In this document: positions 5,774 to 31,229 of the stretch, piece after piece
How the letters are laid out: every line of letters starts with the position of its first letter
How positions within the stretch are numbered: the first letter of the stretch is position 1
Source of the DNA: Chlamydiales bacterium
Lineage (GTDB): Bacteria > Chlamydiota > Chlamydiia > Chlamydiales > SM23-39
DNA: 32,000 nucleotides
Direction: 5' to 3'
Assembly (NCBI GenBank): GCA_965261025.1
Contig: OZ253438.1
Span: 1,080,001 to 1,112,000 of the forward strand
Notes under the pieces: model-generated
What the model was told of the DNA's origin: nothing
The model's input: only the letters and a program-made list of their open reading frames with translations
Database searches by the model: none
Program-made: the position numbers and the translations under genes

Positions 5774-5797
5774 GACTTCCCTTCATGTAAAGCTGTT

Positions 5798-6553: not shown

Positions 6554-6561
6554 GGACAAAG

Positions 6562-15548: not shown

Positions 15549-15801
15549 GGTATTTACAAAAAGGGAGTTGCTGCATGTTAAAGAAGGCCTTTAGCGCAAA
15601 ATCAATCGGCTTTATAGCTTAACCATCTCTTGCATGACTTAAAGGAAGCTTTTTCCTTAACTCTTTGCAAAAGAGCTTCAATCTTAACAAAAAGCAACCC
15701 TGTACGGATAATAGTAAAATTTTTGCTTTGCTTAATTCTTGATTATAAAATTTTAAATATAGTACGATCTCCGAAAATTTTGCTTCCCTGTGAGAGAGCG
15801 T

Positions 15802-17823
15802 ATGAATATATTAGGGATTTGTGGGGCTTTTGGCACTCCGGACGGCGATTTTGTCCCTGAAACTCCGATTTGGTTTTATCATGATGCTACGGCCTGCCTT
15901 ATCCAAGACGGAAAACTGATTGCAGCTTCTGAAGAAGAGCGTTTTAACCGGATAAAACATACTACGAAATTTCCCTTGAATGCTATTCGTTATTGTTTGG
16001 AAGAGGCGAATCTTAGTTTTGCACAAATTGATGGAGTAGCCTACTATTTTTCTCCTCCTTACGTGGATAAAGAGCTCTATTTAAAGTATATCTCTTTTCC
16101 AGAGAGCCCTGTGCGTGATTGCAAACAACTCCTATTAGAATTAATTACGGAAAATTTTGATCGGAACTTTGATTCCTCTAAGCTTGTTTTTGTTGAACAT
16201 CATCTTTGCCATGCCTACTCTGCTTTTTACCATTCTGGTTTTGAAAAGGCTTTAACTGTTGTCTTGGATGGGCAAGGGGAAAAATATGGCATCTCAGTTT
16301 ATCATACCAGCCTACAGGAAACACAACCTTTACAGTCTTATACCGGCTCTGACTCCCTCGGGCATTTTTTTGTAGAATCAATAAAAATCCTTGGATACAA
16401 ACTGTTTGATGAATATAAGGTAATGGGTCTAGCTCCCTATGGGGATCCTAGTATATTTCGCCCTTTGTTTGACAAGCTCTACCGCCTTTTACCAAATGGG
16501 AATTATAGCCTTAATATCCCCCTGAATCGGATCCGTTCATTTTTTCTCAAAAACGGGATACAACCCCGTCGGAGAGGCGAACCATTTAGCAAAATACAGG
16601 AAAACTTCGCTGCTTCACTGCAAGAGGCTCTTGAAAAGATTGCCTTTCACCTTATTTCCCATTGGCAAAAAAAGACGGGATTGAAAAATCTCTGTATGGC
16701 AGGAGGCGTAGCACATAATTGTACGTTAAATGGTAAGATTGCTTGTTCTTCTCTCTTTGATAAAATGTTTGTTCATCCCGCGGCCTTTGATGCGGGAGCT
16801 GCTATCGGGGCTGCTATGTATGTTTCTGAGCAAAAGGGAGCTCTGATCAAGCAAAGCGGCCCTATTCGATCTATTTATTGGGGTCCTCATATTGAGACTA
16901 AGGAAACAAATATCGAAGAGAAGCTCTCGAAGTGGTCTGACTTAATGAAGCTTGAGTATAAATCCGATATTGAAAAAGCAGGAGCAAAACTCCTAGCAGA
17001 GGGGAGTGTGATAGGTTGGGTTCAGGGCAAAATGGAATTTGGCCCAAGAGCTCTGGGAAATCGAAGTATTCTAGCAGATCCTAGACCGGGAGAAAATAAA
17101 TCACGAATCAACGCAATGATTAAAAAGCGGGAAGCTTATCGTCCTTTTGCTCCTTCGATCCTTGAAGAAGAAGTGTCCCATTTTTTTGAATTACCTAAGT
17201 GTGAAATTGACTTGTCCTTTATGACTTATAATCTCGAAGTAAGAAAAGAATACCAAAAACAGCTTGGCGCTATCACGCATGTGAATGGGACAGGAAGGAT
17301 ACAAACAGTTAGTAAAGAGCAGAATGAGAGATATTGGAAGCTGATATATTATTTTCAAAAGCTTACTGGGATTCCGCTTCTTTTGAATACTTCATTTAAC
17401 AACAATCACGAACCCATTGTGTGTACAATAGAAGACAGTATAGCTTGTTTTCTTACTACAGGTCTGGATTATTTAGTGGTAGGAAATTATCTATTAACAA
17501 AGAAGGATAACTTTATTGAAAATTTGCTTAATTTATCCGTATCCTTACCCCCTCATGTCAAATTGTGTAAACTCCATTCTTCTACTGGTTTGGTGAGATA
17601 TACAATTCGCTCGAGTGTATCCTCTCTTGCAGAAATTGAAGTAAGCGAAAACCTATACCACTTCCTTAGAGAAGACTTTTCCTTTATTTCTTCTCTAAGT
17701 TCTCAAAGGCAAGCTATCCTTGCCCAAGAGCTTTATGATTGCTGGTCGTATCGAATGTTTTCTTTTCAACCGGGTACCTTAAAAACTCCAAAACAAGAGA
17801 TCTATCAAACAGCTAATGTCTAG
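15802..17823 (+). CDS. Carbamoyltransferase A (NodU/CmcH/TobZ family)
   Basis: Kae1-like N-domain (MNILGICG, FYHDATACL, EEERFNR, HHLCHA, LDGQGEK). YrdC-like C-domain (GPRALGNRSILADPR, REAYRPFAPS, HVNGTGRIQTV, NTSFNNNHEPIV). The track start GTG 15790 is less likely than ATG 15802. Confidence 0.9.
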   Translation: MNILGICGAFGTPDGDFVPETPIWFYHDATACLIQDGKLIAASEEERFNRIKHTTKFPLNAIRYCLEEANLSFAQIDGVAYYFSPPYVDKELYLKYISFPESPVRDCKQLLLELITENFDRNFDSSKLVFVEHHLCHAYSAFYHSGFEKALTVVLDGQGEKYGISVYHTSLQETQPLQSYTGSDSLGHFFVESIKILGYKLFDEYKVMGLAPYGDPSIFRPLFDKLYRLLPNGNYSLNIPLNRIRSFFLKNGIQPRRRGEPFSKIQENFAASLQEALEKIAFHLISHWQKKTGLKNLCMAGGVAHNCTLNGKIACSSLFDKMFVHPAAFDAGAAIGAAMYVSEQKGALIKQSGPIRSIYWGPHIETKETNIEEKLSKWSDLMKLEYKSDIEKAGAKLLAEGSVIGWVQGKMEFGPRALGNRSILADPRPGENKSRINAMIKKREAYRPFAPSILEEEVSHFFELPKCEIDLSFMTYNLEVRKEYQKQLGAITHVNGTGRIQTVSKEQNERYWKLIYYFQKLTGIPLLLNTSFNNNHEPIVCTIEDSIACFLTTGLDYLVVGNYLLTKKDNFIENLLNLSVSLPPHVKLCKLHSSTGLVRYTIRSSVSSLAEIEVSENLYHFLREDFSFISSLSSQRQAILAQELYDCWSYRMFSFQPGTLKTPKQEIYQTANV

Positions 17824-18958
17824 TTTAACAAGGGAATATTCCCAAGCTACCCTCATTTTAGAAGATGGAACCTCCTTTTTAGGAAGAACTTCGAGCAATA
17901 TAAAAACAAAGCCCTGTGAAATCGTATTCAACACAGCAATGACGGGATATCAAGAGGTTATTACCGATCCTTCTTATCATGATCAGATTGTTGTATTTTC
18001 TTATCCTCATATAGGAAACATTGGGGTTAACCAAGAAGACCAAGAATCGAAATCTCCGAAAGTAGCTGGAGTGATCGTAAAAGAAATGTCTCGATGCACA
18101 AGTAACTGGAGAGCAGAAGATAGCCTAATTAAATACTTGGAAAAGCACGGGATACCCTGGATTGAAGGCATTGATACTAGAAAACTTGTTAAGCATCTTC
18201 GCACCCATATGAACATACAAGGTGTTATATGTCCAGGAAACGAGGTAGTAAACTACAAACTACAAGCGGCAAACTATGGCTCCCTAAAAGAGCCCTCATT
18301 GCAAAAAATTTCAGTTGACAAACCCGAAGACTGGGTACAACAGACGGTGAGAGAGCCTAGAAAAACTTTTCGAGTAGCTATCATTGACTTTGGAGTCAAG
18401 CACAGCATTCTGAAAACGCTCCATTCGCTAGGAGGGAATGGAAGGCTTTTTCCGCCTAATGTTGCCATTGAAACCATACTAGGCTGGAGCCCTGATGGAA
18501 TTATCTTATCAAACGGACCAGGAGATCCTAAAAATGCCGTGGGGTTTATTCCTACTCTGCTAGGATTAGCCGAAAAAAACTACCCTATTTTGGGCATTTG
18601 TTTCGGTTGTCAAATTATAGCATTAGCTTTTGGTGGTATGACAAGCAAGATGTTCGTGGGGCATCATGGAATCAATCATCCTGTGATTGATCTACGTACT
18701 AACAGAGTCTTTATTTCGAGTCAAAATCATAATTTTGTTGTGGAAGAGAGTCAGTTACCGAATGAACTTAAAATCACTCATCGCTCTCTTTTTGACGGAT
18801 CAATTCAAGGAATACGGCACACTATCTACCCTATTATGGCTCTTCAAGGACATCCCGAAGGAAATCCGGGACCACAAGATTTACACCTCTGTTTTCACGA
18901 ATTTTTGAGTCTGATTTTTTCTCATCAAAAAAAGATTTTGGAGAAAGCATGCCTTTAG
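17816..18958 (+). CDS. carA: Carbamoyl-phosphate synthase small (glutaminase) subunit
   Basis: Motifs: ATLILEDGTSFLG, FNTAMTGYQEVITDPSY, SNGPGDP, GICFGCQ (Cys nucleophile), LQGHPEGNPGPQD. Overlaps the upstream gene by 8 nt. Confidence 0.93.
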   Translation: MSSLTREYSQATLILEDGTSFLGRTSSNIKTKPCEIVFNTAMTGYQEVITDPSYHDQIVVFSYPHIGNIGVNQEDQESKSPKVAGVIVKEMSRCTSNWRAEDSLIKYLEKHGIPWIEGIDTRKLVKHLRTHMNIQGVICPGNEVVNYKLQAANYGSLKEPSLQKISVDKPEDWVQQTVREPRKTFRVAIIDFGVKHSILKTLHSLGGNGRLFPPNVAIETILGWSPDGIILSNGPGDPKNAVGFIPTLLGLAEKNYPILGICFGCQIIALAFGGMTSKMFVGHHGINHPVIDLRTNRVFISSQNHNFVVEESQLPNELKITHRSLFDGSIQGIRHTIYPIMALQGHPEGNPGPQDLHLCFHEFLSLIFSHQKKILEKACL

Positions 18959-21798
18959 ATAATTCGATAAAAAAAGTGCTAACTATAGGCTCTGGTCCGA
19001 TAGTGATAGGGCAAGCTTGTGAATTTGATTATTCGGGTACGCAAGCCTGTAAAGCCCTGCAAGAAGAGGGGGTAAAAGTTATTCTACTCAATTCTAATCC
19101 TGCCACTATCATGACAGACAAAGATATAGCAGATTCTGTTTACATTGAACCCATTACCCCTAGGGTAATAGAGCAAATCCTAAAAGAGCAAAAACCTGAT
19201 GCAATCCTTCCGATTATGGGGGGACAAACAGCCTTGAATGTAACTTTGGAGCTTGAAGAGCAAAAAGTATTTAACAAGTTTCCTACAAGACTTATAGGTC
19301 TCAGCACAGAGACCATTAAAGTAGCAGAAAATCGGCTTCTGTTTAAAAAAGCCTTAAATGAAATTGGATTAGCTACCCCTTGTTCTGTATATCTTCAGTC
19401 TTTGAAAGAATTACAAGAGGCAAAAAACAAACTTCACTTCCCCTTAATTGTGAGGAGCTCTTTTACTTTAGGTGGAGAATTTGGGGGAGTAGTTAACACA
19501 TTGGGTGAGCTGGAAATTCTTTGTAAGAAAGCTTTCTTCTCTGGTAAAGGCCTTTTAGTAGAAGAGTCACTAATTGGATGGAAAGAGATCGAACTAGAAG
19601 TTATGCGAGATCACGTAGGAAATTGTATAGTTGTGTGTGGAATAGAAAATCTAGATCCCATGGGAGTTCATACGGGTGATTCGATAACTGTAGCTCCTAT
19701 TCAGACTTTATCAGATAAAGAATACCAAGAAATCCGTTTGCAAGCCTTTCGAGTCATGGAAAAAGTAGGAATGACTTCGGGAGGATGTAATGTTCAGTTT
19801 GCAATTCATCCACAAAAGGGAAAAATCTATTGCATAGAGATGAATCCCAGGGTTTCACGCTCTTCTGCCTTGGCTTCAAAAGCTACCGGTTTTCCGATTG
19901 CGAAAATTGCAGCGAAAATTGCTCTCGGATACAACTTATATGAACTTCAAAATGGGCTTACTTCATCCAATATCCCTTCTTCCTTTGAACCTACTTTAGA
20001 CTATGTAGTTACAAAAATACCGAAATTTAATTTTGAGAAATTTCCTGATGTTAATGAAGAACTAACCACTCATATGAAATCCGTAGGAGAAGTAATTGCA
20101 ATTGGAAGGACCTTTAAAGAATCCTTCCAAAAAGCCTTGAAAAGTTTAGAGATACCCATCCCACATAAGGCGTACAATGGTGAACAAGATACTCTCAAGA
20201 AAAGAGATGCCAAAAAAATATATCGTGTTTTAGAAGCCCTTAGAGAAGGGATTTCAGTTCAAACTATGGCCCAACTGACAGGCTATGACCCTTGGTTTCT
20301 CGATCAGTTATCTCAAATCATTGAGACAGAATCAGAAATTCAAACTTATAGAGCTTCTTCTATTCAAAGAAATGCACTTTTACGATGGAAACAAAATGGG
20401 TTTTCTGACCAGGAAATTGCCCAGTTATTGCATTCTAATGCAAGCTTCATTGAATCCTTGAGAAAGCAATTTGAACTATCTACAGCCTATAAAAGAATTG
20501 ATACCTGTGCAGGAGAATTTCCCACCCAAACTGCTTATATGTACTCTACCTATGAACAAGAGTGTGAGAGTGCTCCAACCCGTTGTGAAAAAATATTAGT
20601 TCTTGGTGGTGGCTCAAATCGAATTGGACAAGGTATTGAGTTTGATTATTGCTGTGTCCATGCTCTGCAATCTATCAAAAAGATGGGATATGAAGCGATC
20701 ATGCTCAATTGCAATCCGTCCACAGTTTCTACAGATTACAATATGGCAGATCGTTTGTATTTAGAGCCTTTAGCAGCTGAGTATGTCATGGAAGTAGTAC
20801 AAAAAGAAAAACCCAAGGGGGTTATTATCCAATTTGGAGGACAAACTCCCATCCAAATTGCCAGGAGTCTTTCTCTGCAAGGCGTTCCCCTCTTAGGAAC
20901 TCCCTTTGACATGATTGAAAGATCAGAAGATCGCGATAAGTTCAAACAAGTCCTTATAGAGTTAGGCCTTTCCTACCCAAAAAGCTTTTCAGGGAATCAC
21001 CCTGAAGAAGTTCTTGAACCGATTTCTGAAGTAGATTTTCCCCTAATAGTACGCCCTTCTTTTGTAATTGGGGGCAATGGAATGCAAGTTCTGTATACAA
21101 AACGACAACTTGAAACCTATCTTGAAAAGATCGATTTTGAGCAGATTAAGCCTCTTTTAGTTGAGTCCTTTGTAGAAAATGCCCTTGAAATAGAGATCGA
21201 TGCTATTGGAGATAAAGAGCAAGTTACTATCTGCGGAGTTATAGAGCACCTTGATCGAGCTGGTATCCATTCAGGGGATTCGATAGCGTATCTCTTTCCC
21301 CATTCTCTAACTGAACAACAGGTCGAAAAATTGGAAAAAATAACTCGGATGATTGGATTAAGGATGGAAGTAATAGGCTGCTTCAATATTCAGTTTGTTG
21401 TATCAGCAGAGGAGATTTTTGTTATAGAGGTCAACCTACGAGCTTCTAGAACGGTTCCTTTACTTGCAAAGATTACAGGCTATCCCCTGGTCGAGATTGC
21501 TATGCATTGTATTCTGGGAAAATCTCTCAAAAGTTTAGCTATTCCAGAGAAAATCGCACCCCAACATCTAGCATTGAAAATTCCTGTATTTCCCTTTACA
21601 AGATTAGGGATTGAATCCCAAAACTTAGGTCCATACATGACCTCTACTGGTGAAGTAATGGCCGTTGCAAAAAATTTTCAAGATCTGCTGAAAAAGGCAA
21701 ACGAGTATTCTTTGAGTATCCGAATCTATAATGAGAAATTCAAAGAATTGATTGCCCCTTATGCAGGATTGAATCCCTCTGTTGTCGGAATCGTTTAG
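18949..21798 (+). CDS. carB: Carbamoyl-phosphate synthase large subunit, 949 aa, apparently without the C-terminal allosteric domain
   Basis: Motifs: GSGPIVIGQACEFDYSGTQACKAL, IEMNPRVSRSSALASKATGFPIAKIAAK, second half GGGSNRIGQGIEFDYCCVHA, VNLRASRTVP. Ends 45 aa after STGEVM. Overlaps carA by 10 nt. Confidence 0.93.
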   Translation: MPLDNSIKKVLTIGSGPIVIGQACEFDYSGTQACKALQEEGVKVILLNSNPATIMTDKDIADSVYIEPITPRVIEQILKEQKPDAILPIMGGQTALNVTLELEEQKVFNKFPTRLIGLSTETIKVAENRLLFKKALNEIGLATPCSVYLQSLKELQEAKNKLHFPLIVRSSFTLGGEFGGVVNTLGELEILCKKAFFSGKGLLVEESLIGWKEIELEVMRDHVGNCIVVCGIENLDPMGVHTGDSITVAPIQTLSDKEYQEIRLQAFRVMEKVGMTSGGCNVQFAIHPQKGKIYCIEMNPRVSRSSALASKATGFPIAKIAAKIALGYNLYELQNGLTSSNIPSSFEPTLDYVVTKIPKFNFEKFPDVNEELTTHMKSVGEVIAIGRTFKESFQKALKSLEIPIPHKAYNGEQDTLKKRDAKKIYRVLEALREGISVQTMAQLTGYDPWFLDQLSQIIETESEIQTYRASSIQRNALLRWKQNGFSDQEIAQLLHSNASFIESLRKQFELSTAYKRIDTCAGEFPTQTAYMYSTYEQECESAPTRCEKILVLGGGSNRIGQGIEFDYCCVHALQSIKKMGYEAIMLNCNPSTVSTDYNMADRLYLEPLAAEYVMEVVQKEKPKGVIIQFGGQTPIQIARSLSLQGVPLLGTPFDMIERSEDRDKFKQVLIELGLSYPKSFSGNHPEEVLEPISEVDFPLIVRPSFVIGGNGMQVLYTKRQLETYLEKIDFEQIKPLLVESFVENALEIEIDAIGDKEQVTICGVIEHLDRAGIHSGDSIAYLFPHSLTEQQVEKLEKITRMIGLRMEVIGCFNIQFVVSAEEIFVIEVNLRASRTVPLLAKITGYPLVEIAMHCILGKSLKSLAIPEKIAPQHLALKIPVFPFTRLGIESQNLGPYMTSTGEVMAVAKNFQDLLKKANEYSLSIRIYNEKFKELIAPYAGLNPSVVGIV

Positions 21799-21810
21799 TG
21801 GAGTAATTTT

Positions 21811-22953
21811 ATGAAAATAGCGGTTGTAGGTTGTGGGTATGTAGCGGGATTTTATATGGCAACTATGCCTAATTTTTCAAAACTCGAGGTAGTGGGAGCC
21901 TTTGATATCGACGAGGAGAGGCTAAATAGGTTCTGTAGGGAGCACCACGTTTATAAATATGCAAATTTTAACGAGCTTCTCCAGGATGAAAAAGTGGATA
22001 TTGTTTTAAATCTCACTTGGATTAAAAGCCATTATACAGTTATCAAGCAGGCTCTTTTAGCAGGAAAACATGTCTATAGTGAAAAACCTCTTACTTACAC
22101 TCTCTCTGAAGGGGAAGAGTTAGTGCACCTGGCAAATAAGAAAAATTTGCATCTTAATGTTGCTCCGTGCAATTTCCTCGGTGCTTCTGGACAAACTCTA
22201 TATCAGCTTATTAAGGATAGCGTCGTGGGAAAAACTCTTCTAGTTCACGCTTCATTACAAGACGGTCCTGTTTACTTAATGGGATATGAAAACTGGAAAA
22301 ATCCCTCAGGGCTTCCTTGGCCTTTTGAAGAAGAATTTACTATGGGATGTGTTTATGAACATGCTGGCTATTATCTGAGCTGGCTTATTCATCTCTTCGG
22401 CTCTGTTATTGAGGTTTCTGCTTTTTCCTCTCCAATTGTACAGGAAATACATGGTAGAGAAAAAAAACTTCAAGGAACCGATTTTTGCGTTGCAGGTCTC
22501 AGACATGAAAGTGGGGTCTGTGTTCATTTTGCTTGTAGCTCAATTTCCCCTTCAGATAATTCTCTAAAAATTATTGGAGAAAAAGGAATTGTACAAGTTG
22601 AAGACTGTTGGAATTGCAATAGTCCTATCTCAGTGCAGTTATTTAACAAAATCGAGCCAAACATAGGACAGAACTCTAAATTTGTTCTCTTAGAAAAAGA
22701 ATCCTGCCCTTTAGTTAAAGGGTTAAATTATCCCTATCACTACAAAGACTCCCACGATATGAATTTCGCAGCAGGGTTAGAAGAATTGAGACTGTCTATA
22801 GAAACGGGAAAAAAATCACGACTAAATAAAGAACTAGCTCTACATGTTCTTGAAATTATTTCTTTAATGGAAGAGCCTGGCGGGGCTCGGCCCCAGCCCT
22901 TTCGACCTAAAACGGCTTATCCTTTGGAGCCAGAATTAGTTCGGACATCTTAA
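21811..22953 (+). CDS. Gfo/Idh/MocA-family NAD(P)-dependent oxidoreductase (sugar/inositol dehydrogenase-like)
   Basis: N-terminal Rossmann motif MKIAVVGCGYVAG and the family motif GKHVYSEKPL. 380 aa. GGAG lies 8-11 nt upstream of the ATG. Confidence 0.85.
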   Translation: MKIAVVGCGYVAGFYMATMPNFSKLEVVGAFDIDEERLNRFCREHHVYKYANFNELLQDEKVDIVLNLTWIKSHYTVIKQALLAGKHVYSEKPLTYTLSEGEELVHLANKKNLHLNVAPCNFLGASGQTLYQLIKDSVVGKTLLVHASLQDGPVYLMGYENWKNPSGLPWPFEEEFTMGCVYEHAGYYLSWLIHLFGSVIEVSAFSSPIVQEIHGREKKLQGTDFCVAGLRHESGVCVHFACSSISPSDNSLKIIGEKGIVQVEDCWNCNSPISVQLFNKIEPNIGQNSKFVLLEKESCPLVKGLNYPYHYKDSHDMNFAAGLEELRLSIETGKKSRLNKELALHVLEIISLMEEPGGARPQPFRPKTAYPLEPELVRTS

Positions 22954-22979
22954 TTTAAAATTACAAAAGGAGGGGAAAT

Positions 22980-24314
22980 ATGTTTGCTATGAAAAGATCT
23001 GATAAGTTGGCCCTTCTGGGTGGAAATCCTCTTGATATCGATTACAAGGAGAGTATTTTCCAGTGGCCCATTATCACCAAAGAAGAAGAAGAGGCTGTTT
23101 TGGAAATTCTAAGAAAGCCCAACTTTAGTGATAGTGAAGTGGTGCCTGCTTTTGAAACCGAATTTGCCGAATGGAATCAAGCAAAATATGCCATAGCCCA
23201 TAGTAATGGAACGAGCGCTGTTCTAACGGCGATGTTTGCTTGCGGCGTAGGTAGAGGGGATGAAGTGATTGCTCCCAGTTTCACTTATTGGGCTACAGTT
23301 CAACAATGCTTTTCTTTGGGCGCAACCATGGTTTTTGCCGATATTGATCCGAAAACCTTATGTATATCTCCTGAAGATATTGAAAAAAAAATCACGAAAA
23401 AAACCAAGGCAATAATAGTAGTCCATTTTTCAGGGTATCCTTGTGAGATGGATTCAATAAATGCTCTTGCAAAAAAATATAATATTAAAGTGATCGAAGA
23501 TGCTTCCCATGCTCATGGAACGCTATATCGTGGAAAAAAAGTGGGTATTCTTGGAGATATTGCTGCCTTTTCTATGTGCGGCAAACCTATATCAATAGGT
23601 GAAGGGGCCATGTTAATTACCAATAGCACAGATCTATACGAAAGGAGTGTGGCATGGTGTGACAAATTTCGTTTTCATTCGGGAAATGTCTCAAATCCAG
23701 AATTGCTTAAATTTGCTGGATTGCCCCTTGGTAGCTGTACAACCCGGATGCACAACCTCAGTGCTGCTGTAGGACGCGTACAGCTCAGACACTACGACCT
23801 ACGCGTCCAAGAAATTGATGCAGCCATGAGCTATTTTTGGGATCTTCTAAGTGAGATTCCCGGTATACAAGCGCACCGTGTTAATAAAAATAGTGGTTCT
23901 ACGATGGGTGGCTGGTATTCTCCTCATGGGATTTATGATCCTGAGCTATTTTCTGGCCTTTCTGTATCCCGGTTTGCCGAAGCAGTCCGAAAAGAAGGGT
24001 TTTACACTTGTACACGCTCTTGTGTCAAAGAACCACTGCATACTCATCCTGTTTTGAATTCCTGCGATATCTACAATGATGGAAAACCTACCAGAATTGC
24101 CTTTTCAAATAGAGAGGTTCGGCAATTTAAAGGATCTCTGCCGGTAACGGAAAATATTAAGACATTTACTGTACCTGCCTTTAGAAAAAATGACCGAAAA
24201 GTCATAGAACAATTTGCAGAAATATTTCATAAAGTAGCTCGCAATCACTTGGAATTAATTCCCGGTGATAAAGGAGATCAAGCAGTCCAAATAGATGAAA
24301 GAGGAAATGGATAA
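22980..24314 (+). CDS. DegT/DnrJ/EryC1/StrS-family PLP aminotransferase (keto-sugar / inosose aminotransferase-like)
   Basis: Motifs: LALLGGNP, WP...EEEEAV, HSNGTSAV, GDEVIAPSFTYWAT, HAHG, and the lysine context AAFSMCGKPISIGEGAMLIT. At 444 aa it is nearer the size I recall for the aminoglycoside StsC/BtrS type than for ~370-aa sugar-nucleotide enzymes. Strong RBS AAGGAGGGG. Confidence 0.88.
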   Translation: MFAMKRSDKLALLGGNPLDIDYKESIFQWPIITKEEEEAVLEILRKPNFSDSEVVPAFETEFAEWNQAKYAIAHSNGTSAVLTAMFACGVGRGDEVIAPSFTYWATVQQCFSLGATMVFADIDPKTLCISPEDIEKKITKKTKAIIVVHFSGYPCEMDSINALAKKYNIKVIEDASHAHGTLYRGKKVGILGDIAAFSMCGKPISIGEGAMLITNSTDLYERSVAWCDKFRFHSGNVSNPELLKFAGLPLGSCTTRMHNLSAAVGRVQLRHYDLRVQEIDAAMSYFWDLLSEIPGIQAHRVNKNSGSTMGGWYSPHGIYDPELFSGLSVSRFAEAVRKEGFYTCTRSCVKEPLHTHPVLNSCDIYNDGKPTRIAFSNREVRQFKGSLPVTENIKTFTVPAFRKNDRKVIEQFAEIFHKVARNHLELIPGDKGDQAVQIDERGNG

Positions 24315-25362
24315 ACAGAATAGACAACTCTCCCAAGGAACTGAAAAAAAGATCCTCGTAGCTCCTCAAGAGCTTCGCCAATTGACAAGCGCTATTTTTT
24401 CACAGTTCTTAAAGGATGAGGAGATCATAAAATGCTTAGCAAATTCGTTTGTTTCGGCTGATTTAGTAGGGCACCACACTCACGGTGTTGCCTCAATCAG
24501 ACCTTACGTCGAAATGACCAAGGAAAAGAGGATTATTCCTAAGGCAAAACCCCGAATAATTGAGAACAATGCTGTAGGCACTTGGGTAGATGGACAGAAC
24601 GGTTATGGAAGATATGCAGCTCGTTGGTCTATGAATAAGTCAATTGAAATTGCAAAAAAGAAGGGAAAGTCGGTTCTATGGTTAAAAAACACCTCTAATA
24701 TTGGTCGTCTAGGTGAATATGCTGAGCAATGTGCAGAAGAAGGATGTATTGGTATAATCACTGTTGGCAGTGGGAATAACAACCAATCAATTGTAGCCCC
24801 TCCAGATTGCGTAAAGCGATTTTTTGGAACAAATCCGATTGCTTTTGCCTTTCCTTTATCAGAAAAAAATACTCCTTTTCTTATTGATCTCTCTCTTAGC
24901 AAAACTACCTATCACCAGGTAGAACAGCACCTTCACATGGATGAATCTCTTAAGGAAAAGTCCCTAATTGATAAAAGGGGAAAATTGACAGATAATCCAG
25001 CTACCCTTTTTGAAGAAGGGTCTATCGTTATGCCAGGGGGGCATAAAGGATTTTGTCTTTCTCTTTTCTTTACCATCTTTGCAGGATTAGCCAATTTAGA
25101 ATTTGAGCAAAAAGGATTAGGGGGAACTTGTTTTATAGTTCTTGATGGAAATCAGATAAAAGGTTTTGAGATTTATAAAGGGCAAGTAAAAGCCTTTCTA
25201 CATCAATGCCGTTTATTAAAAACCCTTGATGGCAAATCGTTGAGATTGCCAGGAGATCATTCTGAAAAATGTCGCGAAAAATATGCAAAGCTTGGTGTCC
25301 CTATTCCAATACAGGTCTGGGAAGATTTAAAAAAAATGTCTTCGGGAAGAGAGGAGCTTTAA
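24295..25362 (+). CDS. Ldh_2-family (malate/L-lactate/sulfolactate/ureidoglycolate dehydrogenase-type) oxidoreductase
   Basis: 355 aa. Family-typical ADLVGHHTHGV, GRLGEYAE, FGTNPIAFAFP and PGGHKGF motifs. Overlaps the upstream gene by 20 nt (an alternative ATG lies at 24307). Confidence 0.75.
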   Translation: MKEEMDKQNRQLSQGTEKKILVAPQELRQLTSAIFSQFLKDEEIIKCLANSFVSADLVGHHTHGVASIRPYVEMTKEKRIIPKAKPRIIENNAVGTWVDGQNGYGRYAARWSMNKSIEIAKKKGKSVLWLKNTSNIGRLGEYAEQCAEEGCIGIITVGSGNNNQSIVAPPDCVKRFFGTNPIAFAFPLSEKNTPFLIDLSLSKTTYHQVEQHLHMDESLKEKSLIDKRGKLTDNPATLFEEGSIVMPGGHKGFCLSLFFTIFAGLANLEFEQKGLGGTCFIVLDGNQIKGFEIYKGQVKAFLHQCRLLKTLDGKSLRLPGDHSEKCREKYAKLGVPIPIQVWEDLKKMSSGREEL

Positions 25363-25363
25363 T

Positions 25364-27223
25364 TTGGAAAAGATATTGACTAGTGTCTCTGTAAAAAATA
25401 AACCTCGCAAACACATAACCAGAACTTTGACTGAAGAAAATATTCATTACTTCAATCGTTCCCTTGAAAAATTTCATTTAGAAAAGTCTCGATATTTTGG
25501 GGTAAATCTCTTTCGGTTTCATATGAAGTACATCTTTGATGTCTTCTTGAGTGTTCATAAAGAAATTAACCCTTCCACGGGGCAGGAATTTGATTTTTTT
25601 CCTCTTCAAGGGAATTTAGATACAGGGGATCCTCATGGCAAACCATTTCCTCCTTTTTTTAATGCACTCCTTGACAAGCTAAGTGAACAAGAAGAGGTAA
25701 AACGCTACTACGGTGCGGCAGCACAAAAAGCGTTAAAAGATTCTATTTCTTCCTTTCTTCTTAAAATGGAAGTTCTCGAAAATCCCAAAGAAACCATGGA
25801 CTATGCTATTGGATCTGGAACTGTCCATTTATATGAATTAATCTGCCGACAACTCATTAAGAGGAAAGGAGATGCTATTCTTATTCCCACTCCAACCTAT
25901 GGCTTTTTTATTCCTCAAGTTTACCGAGCAGGAGGAATCCCTATCCTGTTAGAAACCGATGATCGGGGAATGATTGAAACAAGGCAGTTTGAAAATACAA
26001 TCAAAAAATATAACGAAAGACAGTTAGAGTCCTGGAAAAAACAGTTTCCCAATCTTATTCGTTTATTTGAATCTGACCTTAGAACGAACTGGAACATAGC
26101 CATAAGAGAAAGTTCTATCGAAGATATAAAGGAGCTAGAAAATCAATTATTCTTCGAAACAACCCGAAAAGACTGGGAAAAAGAGGTAGACGCATTTATT
26201 TTTTCTAAAATCCTTAAAAACCAAGAAGACCGTTTCTCCCAGATAAAAGAACAGCAGGAAATCGAATTTCCCTATCCTCCAAGAGTTGTTGGGGCTTTAT
26301 TTATTAATCCTACCGTATATGGGGCAGTTTTAACTAAAGAAGAGGTAGAGAGCTTGGCACAAATCATGGAATACTACCATGTTACAGCAATTGAGGATTT
26401 AGCCTATCTCTTTATTGATGTTAAACCCCATAAAAAACAGGGCTATTTCTTGAATTATAGCGCCCCTTACTTTTCTTTATTGGGAGTATCTAAACCTTTT
26501 GCCCTTTCAGGAATGCGCTTAGGAATGGCCATTTCAAGCAAAGAAAAAATAGAAGAGCTTCAAGGAAGAATTGAAAATTCTATTGGATTTATTTCCCCCA
26601 TTTTTCAAAAAGCTCTAATTGAGTTATTTGAGTCCCCTACTAACCAAATCCAGGAATTCTTTAAAAAGAACAATACCCATGATGAATGGGGCTATAGTTT
26701 AAAACGAAAGCTATCTATTTATTTACTAGAAGGGGCTTCTACTACAAAGCTTTCCGAAAAGGAAAAAAATCCGATCCGATTAATTATCTTCAAGGAGATA
26801 AAGTTGCTAGTAAAAAAATGGGAAGATTTAGGAGTTTCTTTTTCTGATACAGATTTAAAGAAACCCTTTGATAGACAACATAGGGTTTCTCTTGTGGATA
26901 GATTTATGGAAGAGGGATTATCTGATTTTTTTGATATCGTTAGAGATGCTGAAGCAGGATTTTTTTTCATTTTGAATTGTCAGAAGCTGATCAACAAGGG
27001 AAAAATTGGTCCTGTAAAGATTTGCTGTTCATTTGACGTATTTGCTCTGCTTTCCTATTTTTTTGGTCTAAAACTCTTTCCTTCAGAGGCAATGGGTCTA
27101 CAACATGGCTCAAATTGCAATCAACTTCGATACTCCTTTTCATCAGATGTTTCGCTCATTGTTTCCTTATTTTTTACAGCTTACCTAGGTATAAAACAAT
27201 TAGAAGAAATAAAAAATTCTTAA
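25364..27223 (+). CDS. Atypical class I/II PLP aminotransferase-like protein (619 aa, with large insertions)
   Basis: Motifs: PTPTYGFF, INPTVYGAVLTKEEVESL (degenerate NPxNPTG), the PLP-lysine motif LLGVSKPFALSGMRLG, and C-terminal LRYSFS. TTG start 7 nt after GAGAGGAG, 1 nt after the upstream stop. Confidence 0.7.
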   Translation: MEKILTSVSVKNKPRKHITRTLTEENIHYFNRSLEKFHLEKSRYFGVNLFRFHMKYIFDVFLSVHKEINPSTGQEFDFFPLQGNLDTGDPHGKPFPPFFNALLDKLSEQEEVKRYYGAAAQKALKDSISSFLLKMEVLENPKETMDYAIGSGTVHLYELICRQLIKRKGDAILIPTPTYGFFIPQVYRAGGIPILLETDDRGMIETRQFENTIKKYNERQLESWKKQFPNLIRLFESDLRTNWNIAIRESSIEDIKELENQLFFETTRKDWEKEVDAFIFSKILKNQEDRFSQIKEQQEIEFPYPPRVVGALFINPTVYGAVLTKEEVESLAQIMEYYHVTAIEDLAYLFIDVKPHKKQGYFLNYSAPYFSLLGVSKPFALSGMRLGMAISSKEKIEELQGRIENSIGFISPIFQKALIELFESPTNQIQEFFKKNNTHDEWGYSLKRKLSIYLLEGASTTKLSEKEKNPIRLIIFKEIKLLVKKWEDLGVSFSDTDLKKPFDRQHRVSLVDRFMEEGLSDFFDIVRDAEAGFFFILNCQKLINKGKIGPVKICCSFDVFALLSYFFGLKLFPSEAMGLQHGSNCNQLRYSFSSDVSLIVSLFFTAYLGIKQLEEIKNS

Positions 27224-27229
27224 AATTTA

Positions 27230-28540
27230 ATGAATAAAAAGTGGCAGAAAGTTTTAATCCCGTTGGTTTTGGCAAACGCCGGAATTTTATTTGGTTTTGA
27301 TACAGGAAATATTGCCGGTGCTCTTCCTCTGATACGAAGAACACTTCAAACAACCCTTTTTCAAGAGCAGTTTATTGTTTCCATTACCATTTTGGTAGCT
27401 TTCCTAAGTGCCACACTAACGGGTAGGATGGTAGATCGATTCGGCACTAAAAAAATGTTAATTGTCTCCGCTATCCTATACATATTTAGTGCTCTACAAA
27501 GTAGTTTTACCTACTCCCTTTTTGGCTTAATAGTGATCAGATCTATGATGGGGCTAGCTATTGGGATCTCTTCTTTTTCTGCTCCTATGTATATCGCTGA
27601 AATGACTCCTCCAAATCAAAGGGGACGCTATGTTCTTGTAAATGGTATTGCTATTACTTTCGGAGAGTTACTTGCCTTTTCCTGGAGTTATTTTCTAGCT
27701 GATCGAGAAACCTGGCAAGAGACATTTCTTTTAAGTATCCTTCCTGCGTTACTATTACTACTGGGAATGTTGGGTTTACCTTCTGGTAAACAACAAATTT
27801 TAGGCAGTCCCTTTGAAAGATCTTTTCCAGGCTTTTTTCAAAAATTAAAATTTCTAAAGCTTCTTTTTTCTAAAAATGAATTTAAATATCCCCTGACAAT
27901 TGGAATACTTTTGGGTGTCTTTCAGCAATTCTTTGGGATTAATAGCATTATGTATTATGGACCTATTATCTTTGAAGAAATGGGAATGGGTCTGTATAAA
28001 CAACAACTTATTGCTACCATGATGATGGGAGGCACAAATTTTATAGGAACCCTTATTGCAGTTTGCCTTATTGATTCAGTAGGAAGAAGAAAATTGCTGT
28101 TAATTGGCTCTATGATTTCCACTATTTCTTTACTAACGTTAGGACTTTTGATACAGATGAAAATTTCTATATTTCTTTCCCTAGTTGTAATGATGCTTTA
28201 CATTTTTGGATATTGTATCAGTGTTGGTTCTCTATTTTGGCTGGTTATCTCTGAGATTTTTCCTAGTTCCATTCGGGGGTTTTCTATGGGTATCGCAACG
28301 GGATGCCAATGGTTAAGCAATTTTCTCAATTCAAGTATCTTCCTTTCTGCAGTAAATATACTATCTCTACAGGGAGTTTTTTTAGGCTATGCAAGTGTTT
28401 GCGTTTTATGCTTCCTTTTTGTACACGCATTCATTCCTGAAACAAAAGGAATTGCTCTAGCGGAGCTAGAAACCTTTTGGAAAAACGTGAGCCAAAAAGG
28501 AAGGGAAAAAAACCAGGCTAAAAGCCCAAACGTAAGGTGA
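27230..28540 (+). CDS. MFS sugar-porter-family transporter (myo-inositol/hexose:H+ symporter-like)
   Basis: 436 aa with 12 predicted TM segments. Motifs: FGFDTGNIAGALP, GRMVDRFGTKK, QQFFGINSIMYYGPIIF, DSVGRRKLLLIGS, PETKG. Confidence 0.88.
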   Translation: MNKKWQKVLIPLVLANAGILFGFDTGNIAGALPLIRRTLQTTLFQEQFIVSITILVAFLSATLTGRMVDRFGTKKMLIVSAILYIFSALQSSFTYSLFGLIVIRSMMGLAIGISSFSAPMYIAEMTPPNQRGRYVLVNGIAITFGELLAFSWSYFLADRETWQETFLLSILPALLLLLGMLGLPSGKQQILGSPFERSFPGFFQKLKFLKLLFSKNEFKYPLTIGILLGVFQQFFGINSIMYYGPIIFEEMGMGLYKQQLIATMMMGGTNFIGTLIAVCLIDSVGRRKLLLIGSMISTISLLTLGLLIQMKISIFLSLVVMMLYIFGYCISVGSLFWLVISEIFPSSIRGFSMGIATGCQWLSNFLNSSIFLSAVNILSLQGVFLGYASVCVLCFLFVHAFIPETKGIALAELETFWKNVSQKGREKNQAKSPNVR

Positions 28541-28584: not shown

Positions 28585-29157
28585 CTATTCATTCTCATAC
28601 CACCAAAATTCGTCTAGATGTCTCACTTTCTTCTTTAGTCTACGTCCCATATCATCAACAGCTGTTTTTACTCCGGGATAATCAGAATTACCGTAATCAT
28701 CCCCGCATAAGATAGCATCAGAATTTAAGTTTTTTAACCAATGTTGAATATCGTGCAATACTTCAACTTCCTCATGGCTTCCATCGATATAAATAAGATC
28801 TGCCTTTACCTCTAAGTATTTAGTAGCTTCTCGTGATGTCGCTCGAATAGGGATAATCTTACTAGACAAATTTTCATGAATCGCATTCGACAAAAATTGA
28901 TGGTATGTATCCAGCCCTGGAAAAGTCTCTTTAGATTCCGGCCAGGGATCAATACAAAAAATCCTTCCAGAACTGGGTAGCAATGAAGCAATTAGTCTAG
29001 CTGACTTTCCTAACCAAGATCCAACTTCGATAACCACATTTACGTCTGAGTTCTCAATAAATTTCCTCAACATTTTCTCGTTTGCTTCACGAAACCAGCC
29101 ATGATCATTATAGGCAAGCTTTGTAATCTGAGTATATGGCGTTTGTTCTATAATCAT
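28585..29157 (-). CDS. Class I SAM-dependent methyltransferase (Methyltransf_24-like)
   Basis: 190 aa. Motif I VVIEVGSWLGKSA, then FCIDPW, IYIDGSHEEVEV and LCGDDY. Start overlaps the carbamoyltransferase B stop (ATGA at 29154-29157). Confidence 0.75.
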   Translation of the reverse strand: MIIEQTPYTQITKLAYNDHGWFREANEKMLRKFIENSDVNVVIEVGSWLGKSARLIASLLPSSGRIFCIDPWPESKETFPGLDTYHQFLSNAIHENLSSKIIPIRATSREATKYLEVKADLIYIDGSHEEVEVLHDIQHWLKNLNSDAILCGDDYGNSDYPGVKTAVDDMGRRLKKKVRHLDEFWWYENE

Positions 29158-31142
29158 GTATTTCCTCCCTCTATATTTTCAAAAATCCCTGGATTCATTC
29201 GGATTAGCCGACGAGACCAGATATCGTATAGTTCTGAAATGAATTCATCACTTTCAGGCGCATTATCCAAATGGAGCAAGTATTGATACATTTCTTGAGA
29301 AATATCCTGCTTAAAATGCTTTTTTCCTACGTGTCGGATCTCATAAAAAACTTTTTTGTGTGAATCCATACATTCCACAAGAAAAGCCGATGTTACAAGA
29401 GAAGGAGATAAGCTCGCTACTCTTTGTAAAAACTGGGGTTTTTTTTCAATGATGTAATCGCCTATAACGAGGTAGTCTAAACCTGTTGTAAGAAAGCAAG
29501 TCATACTATCCTCAATAGAGCACACAATGGGCTCGTGATTATTATTGAATGATGTATTCAAAATAATAGGAATCCCCGTAAATTCTTGAAAAGAACGTAT
29601 CAATTTCCAATATCTTTCATTTTGCTCCTTACTAACTGTTTGGACTCTTCCGGTTCCATTTACATGAGTAATAGCTCCCAAATGTTTGCGATGCTCTTTT
29701 TTTACTTTAAGATTATAAGTCATAAAAGAGAGATCAATTTCACAATCTGAAAGTTCAAAGTAATTCCCTACTTCTTCCTCAAGAATCGAAGGAGCAAAAG
29801 GACGGTAAGCCTCTCTCTTTTTTATCATTGCATTGATGCGTGACTTGTTTTCTGCTGGTCTAGGATCAGCCAAAATACTTCGACTTCCTAGCGCCCTTGG
29901 GCCAAATTCCATTTCTCCTTGAACCCAACCCATAACATTGCCCTTTGCAATCAGCTCAGCAGCTAACTCTTCTATCCTAGAGCTATACTCAATCTTTACT
30001 AAATCTGACCAAGTATCCAGTTCTTGCTTAATACTTACCCCTTCTGTTTTAAGGCCAGGACCCCAATAAATGGATCGGATTGGTTTCTCTTTTTTGATGG
30101 CTAATCCTTTCTGTTTAGAGATGCACATACCAGCCCCAACAGCGGCTCCTGCATCGAAGGCTGCTGGATGAACAAACATTTTATCAAAAAGATTGGAACT
30201 TGCGATTTTACCATTTAACGTACAGTTATGTGCTACCCCTCCTGCCATGCAAAGATTTTTTAGCCCTGTTCTATACTTCCAATGAGAAATGAGATGAAAT
30301 ACTATATTTTCTAAAGCTTCTTGCAGTGCTGCAGCAAAGTCTTTATGAATTTTACTAAATGGCTCGTTTTTTCGACGTGGCTGAATCCCCTTTTTTAGAA
30401 AAAAAGATCGAAACTGCATTAAAGGAATGCTGAACGAATAAGCTCCGTCGGCCTCCAGGGTATAGAGCTTACTAAACAGGGGTTGAAACACGGAAGGATC
30501 TCCATAGGGAGCAAGCCCCATAACCTTGTACTCATCAAACATGTCATAGCCCAAAATCTTAATTGACTCTAGGTAAAAAGAACCCAGGGAAATATCGTAG
30601 TGGTAATCAGAAAGAAAATGCAAATTTCCCTCTTTTCCTTCAAAAATTGATGTGGATTCTTTTTCACCACGACCATCAATGATTACAGTGAGCGCAGAGT
30701 CAAATCCTGAATGGTAATAAGCAGAAAAAGCATGACAAAGATGATGAGGAAGAAACTGGATCCGATCCTCAGAAAAATTTTTGTCAAAAAACTCGGAAAA
30801 TAATCTTCCTAGCAACTGCTTAGACGATAAACAAGGAACATGTGGATGTGAGATATACTGCAAGTTGAGCTCATTATCCACAAAATCATCTTTGTAGTAA
30901 TATCCTATTGCCTCAATTTCCGAAAAAGAAATACCTGCTTTTTCCAGGCAAAAAGAGATACTATGATAAGGAAACATCGTAGTGTGTTTTTTACGATTCA
31001 GACGCTCTTCTTCCACTGCACAAAGGAGCTTACCTTCTTTGAAAAGAGCCGCAGCAGCATCATGATAAAACCACTTTGGAACATAGGGTAAAAATGTTCC
31101 TTCCTTCGTATAAAAACCACCTGAAATTCCTAAAACATACAT
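29154..31142 (-). CDS. Carbamoyltransferase B (NodU/CmcH/TobZ family), paralogue of 15802-17823
   Basis: Same motif set as copy A: MYVLGISGG, FYHDAAAAL, HHLCHA, IDGRGEK, GPRALGSRSILADPR, REAYRPFAPS, HVNGTGRVQTV, NTSFNNNHEPIV. The track start TTG 31157 is less likely than ATG 31142, which follows AGGAA. Confidence 0.9.
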   Translation of the reverse strand: MYVLGISGGFYTKEGTFLPYVPKWFYHDAAAALFKEGKLLCAVEEERLNRKKHTTMFPYHSISFCLEKAGISFSEIEAIGYYYKDDFVDNELNLQYISHPHVPCLSSKQLLGRLFSEFFDKNFSEDRIQFLPHHLCHAFSAYYHSGFDSALTVIIDGRGEKESTSIFEGKEGNLHFLSDYHYDISLGSFYLESIKILGYDMFDEYKVMGLAPYGDPSVFQPLFSKLYTLEADGAYSFSIPLMQFRSFFLKKGIQPRRKNEPFSKIHKDFAAALQEALENIVFHLISHWKYRTGLKNLCMAGGVAHNCTLNGKIASSNLFDKMFVHPAAFDAGAAVGAGMCISKQKGLAIKKEKPIRSIYWGPGLKTEGVSIKQELDTWSDLVKIEYSSRIEELAAELIAKGNVMGWVQGEMEFGPRALGSRSILADPRPAENKSRINAMIKKREAYRPFAPSILEEEVGNYFELSDCEIDLSFMTYNLKVKKEHRKHLGAITHVNGTGRVQTVSKEQNERYWKLIRSFQEFTGIPIILNTSFNNNHEPIVCSIEDSMTCFLTTGLDYLVIGDYIIEKKPQFLQRVASLSPSLVTSAFLVECMDSHKKVFYEIRHVGKKHFKQDISQEMYQYLLHLDNAPESDEFISELYDIWSRRLIRMNPGIFENIEGGNT

Positions 31143-31229
31143 GGAGAATTTCCTCAAAAATTGAATATTGTAAAAACAAGCAGGTACGTTACTATATAGA
31201 AAATATTTTTTACAAGTCTAGGTATACAA

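Follow-up and report, generated by a model that had tools for sequence, protein, structure and literature searches.

Introduction

In the carbamoyl-phosphate synthetase (CPS) of Escherichia coli, the large subunit CarB ends in an allosteric domain (residues 933-1073), which binds uridine monophosphate (UMP), inosine monophosphate (IMP) and ornithine and takes part in dimer contacts (PMC6245113). The product, carbamoyl phosphate, decomposes easily and is used through a carbamoyl-adenylate by the O-carbamoyltransferases and by the hydrogenase maturation protein HypF (PMC6022934, PMC4506123). De novo synthesis of UMP is lacking in most Chlamydiales, Waddlia and Criblamydia being among those that have it (PMC4333871), and type 3b [NiFe]-hydrogenases have been described in the Rhabdochlamydiaceae and in SM23-39 (Köstlbacher et al., 2021, PMC8242063). 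Here, we analyse the carAB genes in a stretch of 32,000 nucleotides from a bacterium of the Chlamydiales (contig OZ253438.1, positions 1,080,001 to 1,112,000), which we call the window and to which all coordinates refer unless another locus is named.

The CarB protein of the window has no allosteric domain. We consider it probable that it belongs to an active, glutamine-dependent CPS without a regulator, which is specific to a clade within the Chlamydiota and works as a built-in generator of carbamoyl phosphate for adjoining enzymes that form carbamoyl-AMP. Our literature searches returned no paper discussing natural CPSs without the allosteric domain, nothing on carAB in chlamydiae or beside hyp genes, and no dedicated neighbouring carAB for O-carbamoyltransferases or HypF. 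Likewise, a term search of PMC8242063 gave no mention of a linkage between carAB and the chlamydial hydrogenase.

The large subunit ends where the allosteric domain would begin

The gene for the large subunit, carB, is located at 18949..21798 on the plus strand and encodes a protein of 949 aa, in which a carboxyphosphate half, an oligomerisation domain and a carbamoyl-phosphate half are followed by a 30-residue tail in place of the MGS-like domain. Pfam gave two matches each to PF25596 and PF02786 and one to PF02787, with no match to PF02142. The protein scored 1300 bits against the NCBIfam model PRK05294 (NF003671; cut-off 599) and 1247 bits against TIGR01369 (cut-off 1027), covering profile positions 1-925 of 1058 and 3-933 of 1052, respectively. 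In a phmmer search against the PDB, residues 1-919 were aligned to residues 1-933 of E. coli CarB, and the alignment thus stops at the boundary of the allosteric domain as delimited in E. coli (PMC6245113). The codons for the tail (residues 920-949, YSLSIRIYNEKFKELIAPYAGLNPSVVGIV) and the stop codon occupy 21706..21798 on the plus strand and stand where E. coli CarB has residues 934-1073. A preliminary description of the window had noted the length of 949 aa, the two ATP-grasp halves and a stop 45 residues after GPYMTSTGEVM, all of which were borne out by the open reading frame (ORF) coordinates, the Pfam matches and the position of the motif (residues 894-904). It had also put the continuation of canonical CarBs past this motif at more than 100 residues, and we found about 156.

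The C-terminal domains of 102 CarBs of the canonical type were used to build a hidden Markov model (HMM), against which canonical proteins, taken as positive controls, scored 216-231 bits. This model matched nothing on the window protein and its 17 closest relatives (P0001-P0018) and gave only noise (E > 3) on the six-frame translation of the window, which therefore contains no separate ORF for the allosteric domain. An AlphaFold2 model of CarB, built on an alignment of the clade described below (predicted template-modelling score, pTM, 0.85; mean predicted local distance difference test, pLDDT, 79), shows just two short helices (910-923 and 929-938) beyond the last core strand (901-907). When this model was compared with E. 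coli CarB in Foldseek, 932-936 columns were aligned at 48% identity, with a TMq of 0.89-0.90 and a TMt of 0.80 (1bxr), the higher value of TMq being as expected where the target has an additional domain. A compact or split-off allosteric domain, which we considered as a candidate, was ruled out by the six-frame search and the structure prediction. The absence of the MGS-like domain proposed in the preliminary description thus finds agreement in the E. coli alignment, Pfam, NCBIfam, the six-frame HMM search, the AlphaFold model and Foldseek: the domain is missing, neither compacted nor split off. The tail is modelled as a low-confidence helix and is poorly conserved across the clade. By analogy with the ligand-binding site in E. 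coli CPS (PMC6245113), the enzyme would be insensitive to feedback by UMP, IMP and ornithine.

The small subunit and the catalytic residues are retained

The gene for the glutamine-amidotransferase small subunit, carA, is located directly upstream at 17816..18958 on the plus strand. CarA was recognised by TIGR01368 (408 bits, cut-off 307), PF00988 and PF00117, and it aligns to E. coli CarA with 297 bits. The equivalents of Cys269 (in GICFGCQ) and of His353 and Glu355 (in QGHPEGNPGP) are kept in this alignment, as the preliminary description had recognised from the motifs. The GICFGCQ segment (residues 250-256, approximately) corresponds to GICLGHQ in E. coli, so that the nucleophile Cys is retained and the His three residues downstream is changed to Cys.

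CarB is identical to its E. coli homolog at R129, R169, E215, H243, Q285, E299, N301 and R303 in the first half and at R715, H788, Q829, E841, N843 and R845 in the second, a set that we take to be the ATP- and Mg-binding catalytic residues. All 14 positions are invariant in 18 of 18 clade members, among which a total of 300 alignment columns do not vary, even though identity to the window CarB is only 53-62% in this set. With these invariant positions and an intact CarA triad, the CarAB enzyme looks functional on the evidence of its sequence, much as previously suggested.

A chlamydial clade of domain-less large subunits

The 17 best database relatives of the window CarB (P0002-P0018) are 51-63% identical to it and 921-1008 aa in length, and PF02142 is missing from all of them, whereas from hit 19 onwards the matches were canonical CarBs, 1068-1086 aa long and equipped with the domain, betaproteobacterial where a source was named. 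Counted from the start of the GPxMxSTGE motif, the clade proteins end after 36-67 residues and the canonical proteins after 167. The clade was monophyletic in our trees, all of which were inferred by neighbour-joining (NJ), the tree of the shared core carrying no support values. We also considered a sequencing artefact or a pseudogene and rejected both, the truncation being common to 18 sequences with invariant catalytic residues. The absence of the domain is thus a property of the whole clade rather than a chance feature.

Several observations place this clade in the Chlamydiota. The window contains a gene of the UPF0137/pGP6-D family (262 bits) and a gene for an outer-membrane protein that matches the C-terminus of Chlam_OMP, and the best match of its threonyl-tRNA synthetase is 84% identical, with named relatives that are metagenome-assembled genomes (MAGs) of Chlamydiota except for two lower-ranked ones labelled Verrucomicrobia. 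Furthermore, the MAG from which P0006 derives is named "Chlamydiae bacterium," and locus L005 has a faint match to Chlam_OMP. The named members and the marker genes of the window together show that the host is an uncultured chlamydia. The UPF0137/pGP6-D gene forms a pair with a gene for a ParA-type ATPase (5024-6559, minus strand); these homologs of chlamydial plasmid genes are chromosomal here, on a contig of 1.42 Mb. Two adjacent genes on the plus strand, at 8706-9494 and 9612-10850, encode predicted outer-membrane proteins with N-termini resembling signal peptides. The first is the protein noted above, its match being to the C-terminal part of the Chlamydia major outer membrane protein family (E 4e-8), and the second was assigned to no family with confidence.

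Although the tails are poorly conserved overall, those in one subclade, whose genes are linked to a hydrogenase (P0003, P0008, P0009, P0011 and others), share the segment LPxPxxSSxLEVYDIN. Its final residues are similar to the very C-terminus of CarB from betaproteobacteria (ELHVYDLQGLH). Instead of a simple truncation, the protein might have undergone an internal deletion in which the last segment was retained.

An 8-mer scan of contigs with the window CarB returned canonical CarBs of at most 50% identity and one domain-less CarB from the Rhodothermaceae, and a metagenome scan with the C-terminal alignment of the clade gave one more chlamydia-like sequence, L091. At L091:3524-5383 there is a remnant of carB that holds only the C-terminal 619 residues, carA and the N-terminal half being missing. 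The remnant is flanked by genes for a UGP3-like UDP-sugar pyrophosphorylase and a MatE protein, resembling the surroundings of the L001 cluster described below, and it appears to be a cluster copy that has decayed. Among the best 150 matches of a profile search against 1.84 billion cluster representatives, seven further full-length CarBs with 915-947 aa were recovered. These (P0371, P0373, P0374, P0381, P0384, P0409 and P0426) end soon after the motif and have a low-complexity composition like that of AT-rich genomes.

The neighbours of carAB use carbamoyl phosphate outside pyrimidine and arginine synthesis

We examined the contigs of nine clade members, which together with the window provided nine informative gene neighbourhoods; the tenth locus, L010 (P0005), is uninformative because its contig ends right after carB. 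In all nine, a carbamoyltransferase of the NodU/CmcH/TobZ type or HypF is encoded within a few genes of carAB, and in none of the nine did we find a gene of the OTCase/ATCase family (pyrB, argF) or pyrC. Locus L001 (P0002) contains a cluster like that in the window, with carAB, GFO, DegT, Ldh_2, aminotransferase and MFS genes and a carbamoyltransferase gene on the minus strand, the proteins being 46-75% identical to those of the window. At L004 (P0004), carAB is followed directly by a carbamoyltransferase gene, at L008 (P0006) by genes for a GDSL hydrolase, a carbamoyltransferase and two MFS proteins, and at L005/L006 (P0013) two carbamoyltransferase genes precede carAB.

The remaining loci are linked to a hydrogenase. 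At L002, L003 and L007 (P0008, P0018 and P0017), carAB lies directly upstream of the genes for a four-subunit [NiFe]-hydrogenase, the subunits of which match Fer4_22, NAD_binding_1/DHODB_Fe-S, Oxidored_q6 and NiFeSe_Hases. These are followed by genes for HycI, HypA, HypF, HypC and HypD, and in L002 also HypE. The order at L009 (P0016) is HypC, HypD, HypE, NicO, carA and carB. The HypF proteins of the sister loci carry all HypF domains. The hydrogenase-linked carAB loci, where the [NiFe]-hydrogenase is group-3b-like, span L002:12937-22364, L003:11064-19901, L007:4821-13214 and L009:47-2416.

These neighbourhoods argue strongly for a supply of carbamoyl phosphate to consumers outside the pyrimidine and arginine pathways. 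They also change the interpretation in the preliminary description, according to which the enzyme was a CPS dedicated to the two carbamoyltransferases of the window. That a consumer from neither classical pathway is encoded beside carAB held in all nine neighbourhoods, but loss of the domain by itself is no proof of dedication. Furthermore, the idea that the loss was an adaptation of the window cluster did not hold, because the whole chlamydial clade shares it, including the members in [NiFe]-hydrogenase/hyp operons, and the loss predates the cluster. The earlier interpretation finds partial support in the data and should be broadened to a domain-less CPS that also serves hydrogenase maturation.

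In L001, the cluster is flanked by genes (4279-6534, minus strand; 21806-22738 and 22746-22853, plus strand) that are not present in the window and that encode a UGP3-like UDP-sugar pyrophosphorylase, a transporter of the EamA family, a family-2 glycosyltransferase and an exporter of the MatE type. Their presence raises the possibility that the product is glycosylated or exported.

A possible sugar- or cyclitol-modifying pathway in the window

The cluster opens with the gene for carbamoyltransferase 1 (15790..17823, plus strand), a protein of the NodU/CmcH/TobZ type with a Kae1-like N-terminal and a YrdC-like C-terminal domain (PF02543, E 5e-51; PF16861, E 1e-67). Its closest solved relatives in the PDB are NovN (9s2t, E 5e-167) and GdmN (7vx0, E 6e-166), followed by TobZ. 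The translation of the ORF from the GTG at 15790 had no exact match in the protein collection, and the real start is probably a few codons 3' of this position, which leaves the overlap at the 3' end unaffected. A paralog with 61% identity, carbamoyltransferase 2, is encoded on the minus strand (29154..31157), convergent with the operon, and an ortholog of it sits at the same place in L001. PF02543 matched the two proteins with E 5e-51 and 2e-52, respectively, and PF16861 was matched over positions 1-170 of 170 in both. They scored 158 and 151 bits against the NodU equivalog NF041651, far below the cut-off of 1000, and are thus members of the family and not orthologs of NodU.

Downstream of carAB are five further genes on the plus strand. 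A GFO/IDH/MocA-family NAD(P) oxidoreductase resembling sugar and inositol dehydrogenases (21811..22953; PF01408, PF22725) gave weak, non-discriminating matches to UDP-GlcNAc 3-dehydrogenase and inositol 2-dehydrogenase in NCBIfam and the PDB. A pyridoxal phosphate-dependent aminotransferase of the DegT/DnrJ/EryC1/StrS family (22980..24314; PF01041, E 7e-77), putatively acting on a keto-sugar or inosose, is about equally similar to perosamine synthase, glutamine:scyllo-inosose aminotransferase and 2-deoxy-scyllo-inosose aminotransferases in the PDB. These are followed by a type 2 malate/lactate/sulfolactate dehydrogenase of the Ldh_2 family (24295..25362; PF02615, E 5e-73), with generic relatives in the PDB, and by a class I/II aminotransferase-like protein of 619 aa (25364..27223), with weak PDB matches only. 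A large insertion splits the PF00155 match of the latter into two stretches (residues 84-220 and 315-440, approximately), and the protein is kept at 52% identity in L001. The last gene on the plus strand encodes an MFS transporter of the sugar-porter family (27230..28540; PF00083, E 1e-76; TIGR00879, 254 bits, cut-off 238). A class I S-adenosylmethionine-dependent methyltransferase (Methyltransf_24; PF13578, E 2e-19), with a weak match to the O-methyltransferase family PF01596, is encoded on the minus strand (28585..29157).

The gene for carbamoyltransferase 1 overlaps carA by 8 nt and carA overlaps carB by 10 nt, both as given in the preliminary description. The DegT and Ldh_2 genes overlap by 20 nt, and on the minus strand the methyltransferase gene overlaps that of carbamoyltransferase 2 by 4 nt. 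The gaps are 12 nt between carB and the GFO gene, 26 nt between the GFO and DegT genes, 1 nt between the Ldh_2 and aminotransferase-like genes and 6 nt between the latter and the MFS gene. Because the spacing on the plus strand is this tight, the eight genes from 15790 to 28540 likely represent a single operon, and carAB would then probably be co-transcribed with the adjoining consumer genes. A scan of the window for promoters and terminators gave counts at or below those expected from shuffled sequences. Among the 10 window proteins looked up, nine were absent from the protein collection or stood alone in their 90% cluster.

No ORF in the window matched the OTCase/ATCase or dihydroorotase families, which agrees with the earlier observation that genes like pyrB, pyrC or argF are not adjacent. 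Likewise, no Pfam family of a cyclitol-forming enzyme (2-deoxy-scyllo-inosose synthase or myo-inositol-1-phosphate synthase) was found among the window ORFs, and a cyclitol would thus have to be imported through the MFS porter. The best matches of the dehydrogenase and DegT pair fit nucleotide-sugar, hexose-phosphate and inositol substrates alike. We also attempted to name the product from the GFO, DegT and Ldh_2 proteins and the 619-aa protein, but the PDB and NCBIfam matches were generic.

Domain-less large subunits also occur in the Bacteroidota

The metagenome scan with the C-terminal alignment also recovered about 45 loci with a different CarB, which ends in a conserved ...LYSERNYYLSK 35 residues after the motif begins. 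The Bacteroidota-type loci (L125 and L127-L168, for example L130:9062-11929 and L134) have the motif GPQMKSTGE, and L082 belongs to a MAG of the Rhodothermaceae. For one such protein, the 120 best relatives have lengths of 948-969 aa, lack PF02142 and are assigned to Owenweeksia, Schleiferiaceae, Cryomorphaceae or Bacteroidota. In the Flavobacteriales and the Rhodothermaceae, the standard form of CarB is a domain-less protein of about 949 aa. As a type of sequence, a CarB lacking the allosteric domain therefore has precedents. The window CarB does not belong to this type, since it falls into a separate clade in the NJ tree and has an unrelated tail. Canonical CarBs separate the Bacteroidota family from the chlamydial clade in the shared-core tree, which suggests that the domain was lost independently in the two groups; a single origin was rejected on this tree, which as stated has no support values.

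Discussion

Our findings suggest how a biosynthetic enzyme regulated at a branch point may change once the branch point has disappeared. A likely scenario is that a cyclitol or sugar, probably imported, is oxidised, transaminated and methylated in the window's host, and then carbamoylated once or twice with carbamoyl phosphate that is made locally. Carbamoyl phosphate would be too labile for import, and since it decomposes so easily (PMC6022934) its synthesis would have to take place within the bacterial cell. Most chlamydiae may have no other need for it. In a lineage where carbamoyl phosphate is required solely by a carbamoyltransferase or HypF, the sensing of UMP and ornithine would be useless, and with no competing demand from pyrimidine and arginine synthesis the supply could be set by co-expression from the operon rather than by allostery. 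We infer that the pyrimidine and arginine pathways are absent from the window's genome, and the chemical class of the product is likewise deduced from the families of the cluster proteins. The removal of C-terminal residues from E. coli CarB by Czerwinski, Mareya and Raushel in 1995, a study cited in PMC6245113, reportedly abolished allosteric control, and the chlamydial enzyme would thus be expected to be insensitive to feedback.

Several points weigh against our main interpretation. Just nine neighbourhoods were informative, mostly on short metagenomic contigs with unverified taxonomy. We can only guess at the product, as the dehydrogenase and aminotransferase matches do not separate the substrates. 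Furthermore, pyrB, argF or a second carAB may lie elsewhere in the 1.42-Mb genome, and pyrimidine synthesis is present in some chlamydiae (Waddlia, Criblamydia and some Sororchlamydiaceae). The domain-less CarB of the Flavobacteriales and Rhodothermaceae presumably serves its hosts as a general CPS, so that the loss of the domain is compatible with a housekeeping role and does not by itself show a dedicated one. Finally, the large C-terminal truncations of E. coli CarB made in the 1995 work are said to impair carbamoyl-phosphate synthesis, the largest being poorly active, and activity without the domain cannot therefore be assumed from the E. coli enzyme.

Three other explanations for the findings should be considered. 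The enzyme could be a housekeeping CPS that supplies carbamoyl phosphate for pyrimidine synthesis, arginine synthesis or both and is placed in the cluster for convenience, or one that serves both primary metabolism and the cluster. The Bacteroidota precedent and the retention of pyrimidine synthesis in some chlamydial lineages are compatible with this, and our gene evidence covers the 32-kb window of a 1.42-Mb genome. We consider it of appreciable probability but nevertheless unlikely, because HypF or a NodU/CmcH-type carbamoyltransferase accompanies carAB in all nine neighbourhoods and pyrB, pyrC and argF in none, because carA and carB overlap their neighbours within one tightly packed block, because the chlamydial and Bacteroidota families form separate clades and because most Chlamydiales are unable to synthesise UMP (PMC4333871).

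The truncated carB could also be a relic in the reduced genome of an intracellular bacterium, decaying or inactive and making no carbamoyl phosphate. The reported damage to the overall reaction in the truncated E. coli enzyme fits such a scenario, and the remnant at L091, which retains 619 codons of carB and no carA, indicates that decay does occur in the lineage. In the window, however, both subunits are full length and uninterrupted, with a CarB score far above the cut-off, and the invariance of the catalytic positions and of 300 columns in all across 18 sequences, the common truncation point and the conserved gene order with the consumers in different genomes make decay extremely improbable. 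A third explanation is that the enzyme is still regulated, in trans, or that it channels its product by docking a carbamoyltransferase or HypF on the CarB surface that was exposed by the loss. The partly conserved tails within subclades, with LPxPxxSSxLEVYDIN in most of the hydrogenase-linked subclade, suggest a retained interaction surface, and carAB overlaps a consumer gene in several loci. On the other hand, no MGS-like domain was found in any frame of the window or in any gene called in the related loci, and the tail in the window's subclade differs from the others, so that we regard this explanation as highly unlikely.

We therefore favor a regulator-free CPS that feeds the adjoining carbamoyl-AMP-forming enzymes. 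A tentative and rather doubtful extension is that chlamydiae, having largely abandoned pyrimidine and arginine synthesis, retained carAB as a pared-down, portable carbamoyl-phosphate cassette that has been reused at least twice, for HypF and the [NiFe]-hydrogenase and for a carbamoylated amino-sugar or aminocyclitol, and that the freed CarB surface docks the partner and hands over the carbamoyl phosphate. If true, the cluster would be the first pathway for an aminoglycoside-like, doubly carbamoylated metabolite to be described in an obligate intracellular bacterium. On the favored hypothesis, the clade would illustrate the fate of an allosteric branch-point enzyme after its branch point has vanished, with catalysis kept, the sensor dropped and the genes placed beside the remaining user of carbamoyl phosphate. 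It would also offer a source of the precursor of the cyanide ligands to those chlamydiae that possess type 3b [NiFe]-hydrogenases. A conserved, uncharacterised pathway for a putative carbamoylated metabolite is hereby flagged in environmental chlamydiae, and the two seemingly independent families of natural domain-less CPSs, chlamydial and Bacteroidota, could be used to probe the part that the domain plays in catalysis, oligomerisation and control. In the annotation of chlamydial genomes, carAB should not be counted as evidence of pyrimidine or arginine synthesis.

Comparison with known systems

The CarAB enzyme of the window is similar to that of E. coli (1JDB, 1BXR) in the Cys-His-Glu triad of CarA and in the two ATP-grasp halves and the oligomerisation domain of CarB, but it differs in having no counterpart to CarB residues 934-1073. 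The genetic context is also different, since the E. coli carAB operon is under pyrimidine and arginine control, whereas carAB in the window is part of a probable operon for carbamoyltransferase and putative sugar-modification genes. Unlike the laboratory truncations of the E. coli protein, the truncated form is kept naturally throughout a clade whose members are 51-63% identical to the window CarB. The CarB of about 949 aa in the Bacteroidota is alike in its length, in ending shortly after GPxMKSTGE and in lacking PF02142, but it forms a separate clade with the conserved ...LYSERNYYLSK end. At L130, the one Bacteroidota-type locus checked, carB stands alone, with no carA, carbamoyltransferase or HypF gene beside it, and the members of the Flavobacteriales and Rhodothermaceae are mostly free-living.

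A precedent for a CPS that is dedicated to a single pathway and encoded in the operon of that pathway is provided by the arginine-specific CarAB and the pyrimidine-specific PyrAA/PyrAB of Bacillus and Lactobacillus. These pathway-specific enzymes have kept the allosteric domain, however, and they serve the classical pyrimidine and arginine pathways rather than transferases that form carbamoyl-AMP. In the characterised hosts of O-carbamoyltransferases and HypF, the assumed source of carbamoyl phosphate is the general pool made by a housekeeping CPS. The two carbamoyltransferases in the window share the full architecture of a Kae1-like and a YrdC-like domain with TobZ, NovN and GdmN.

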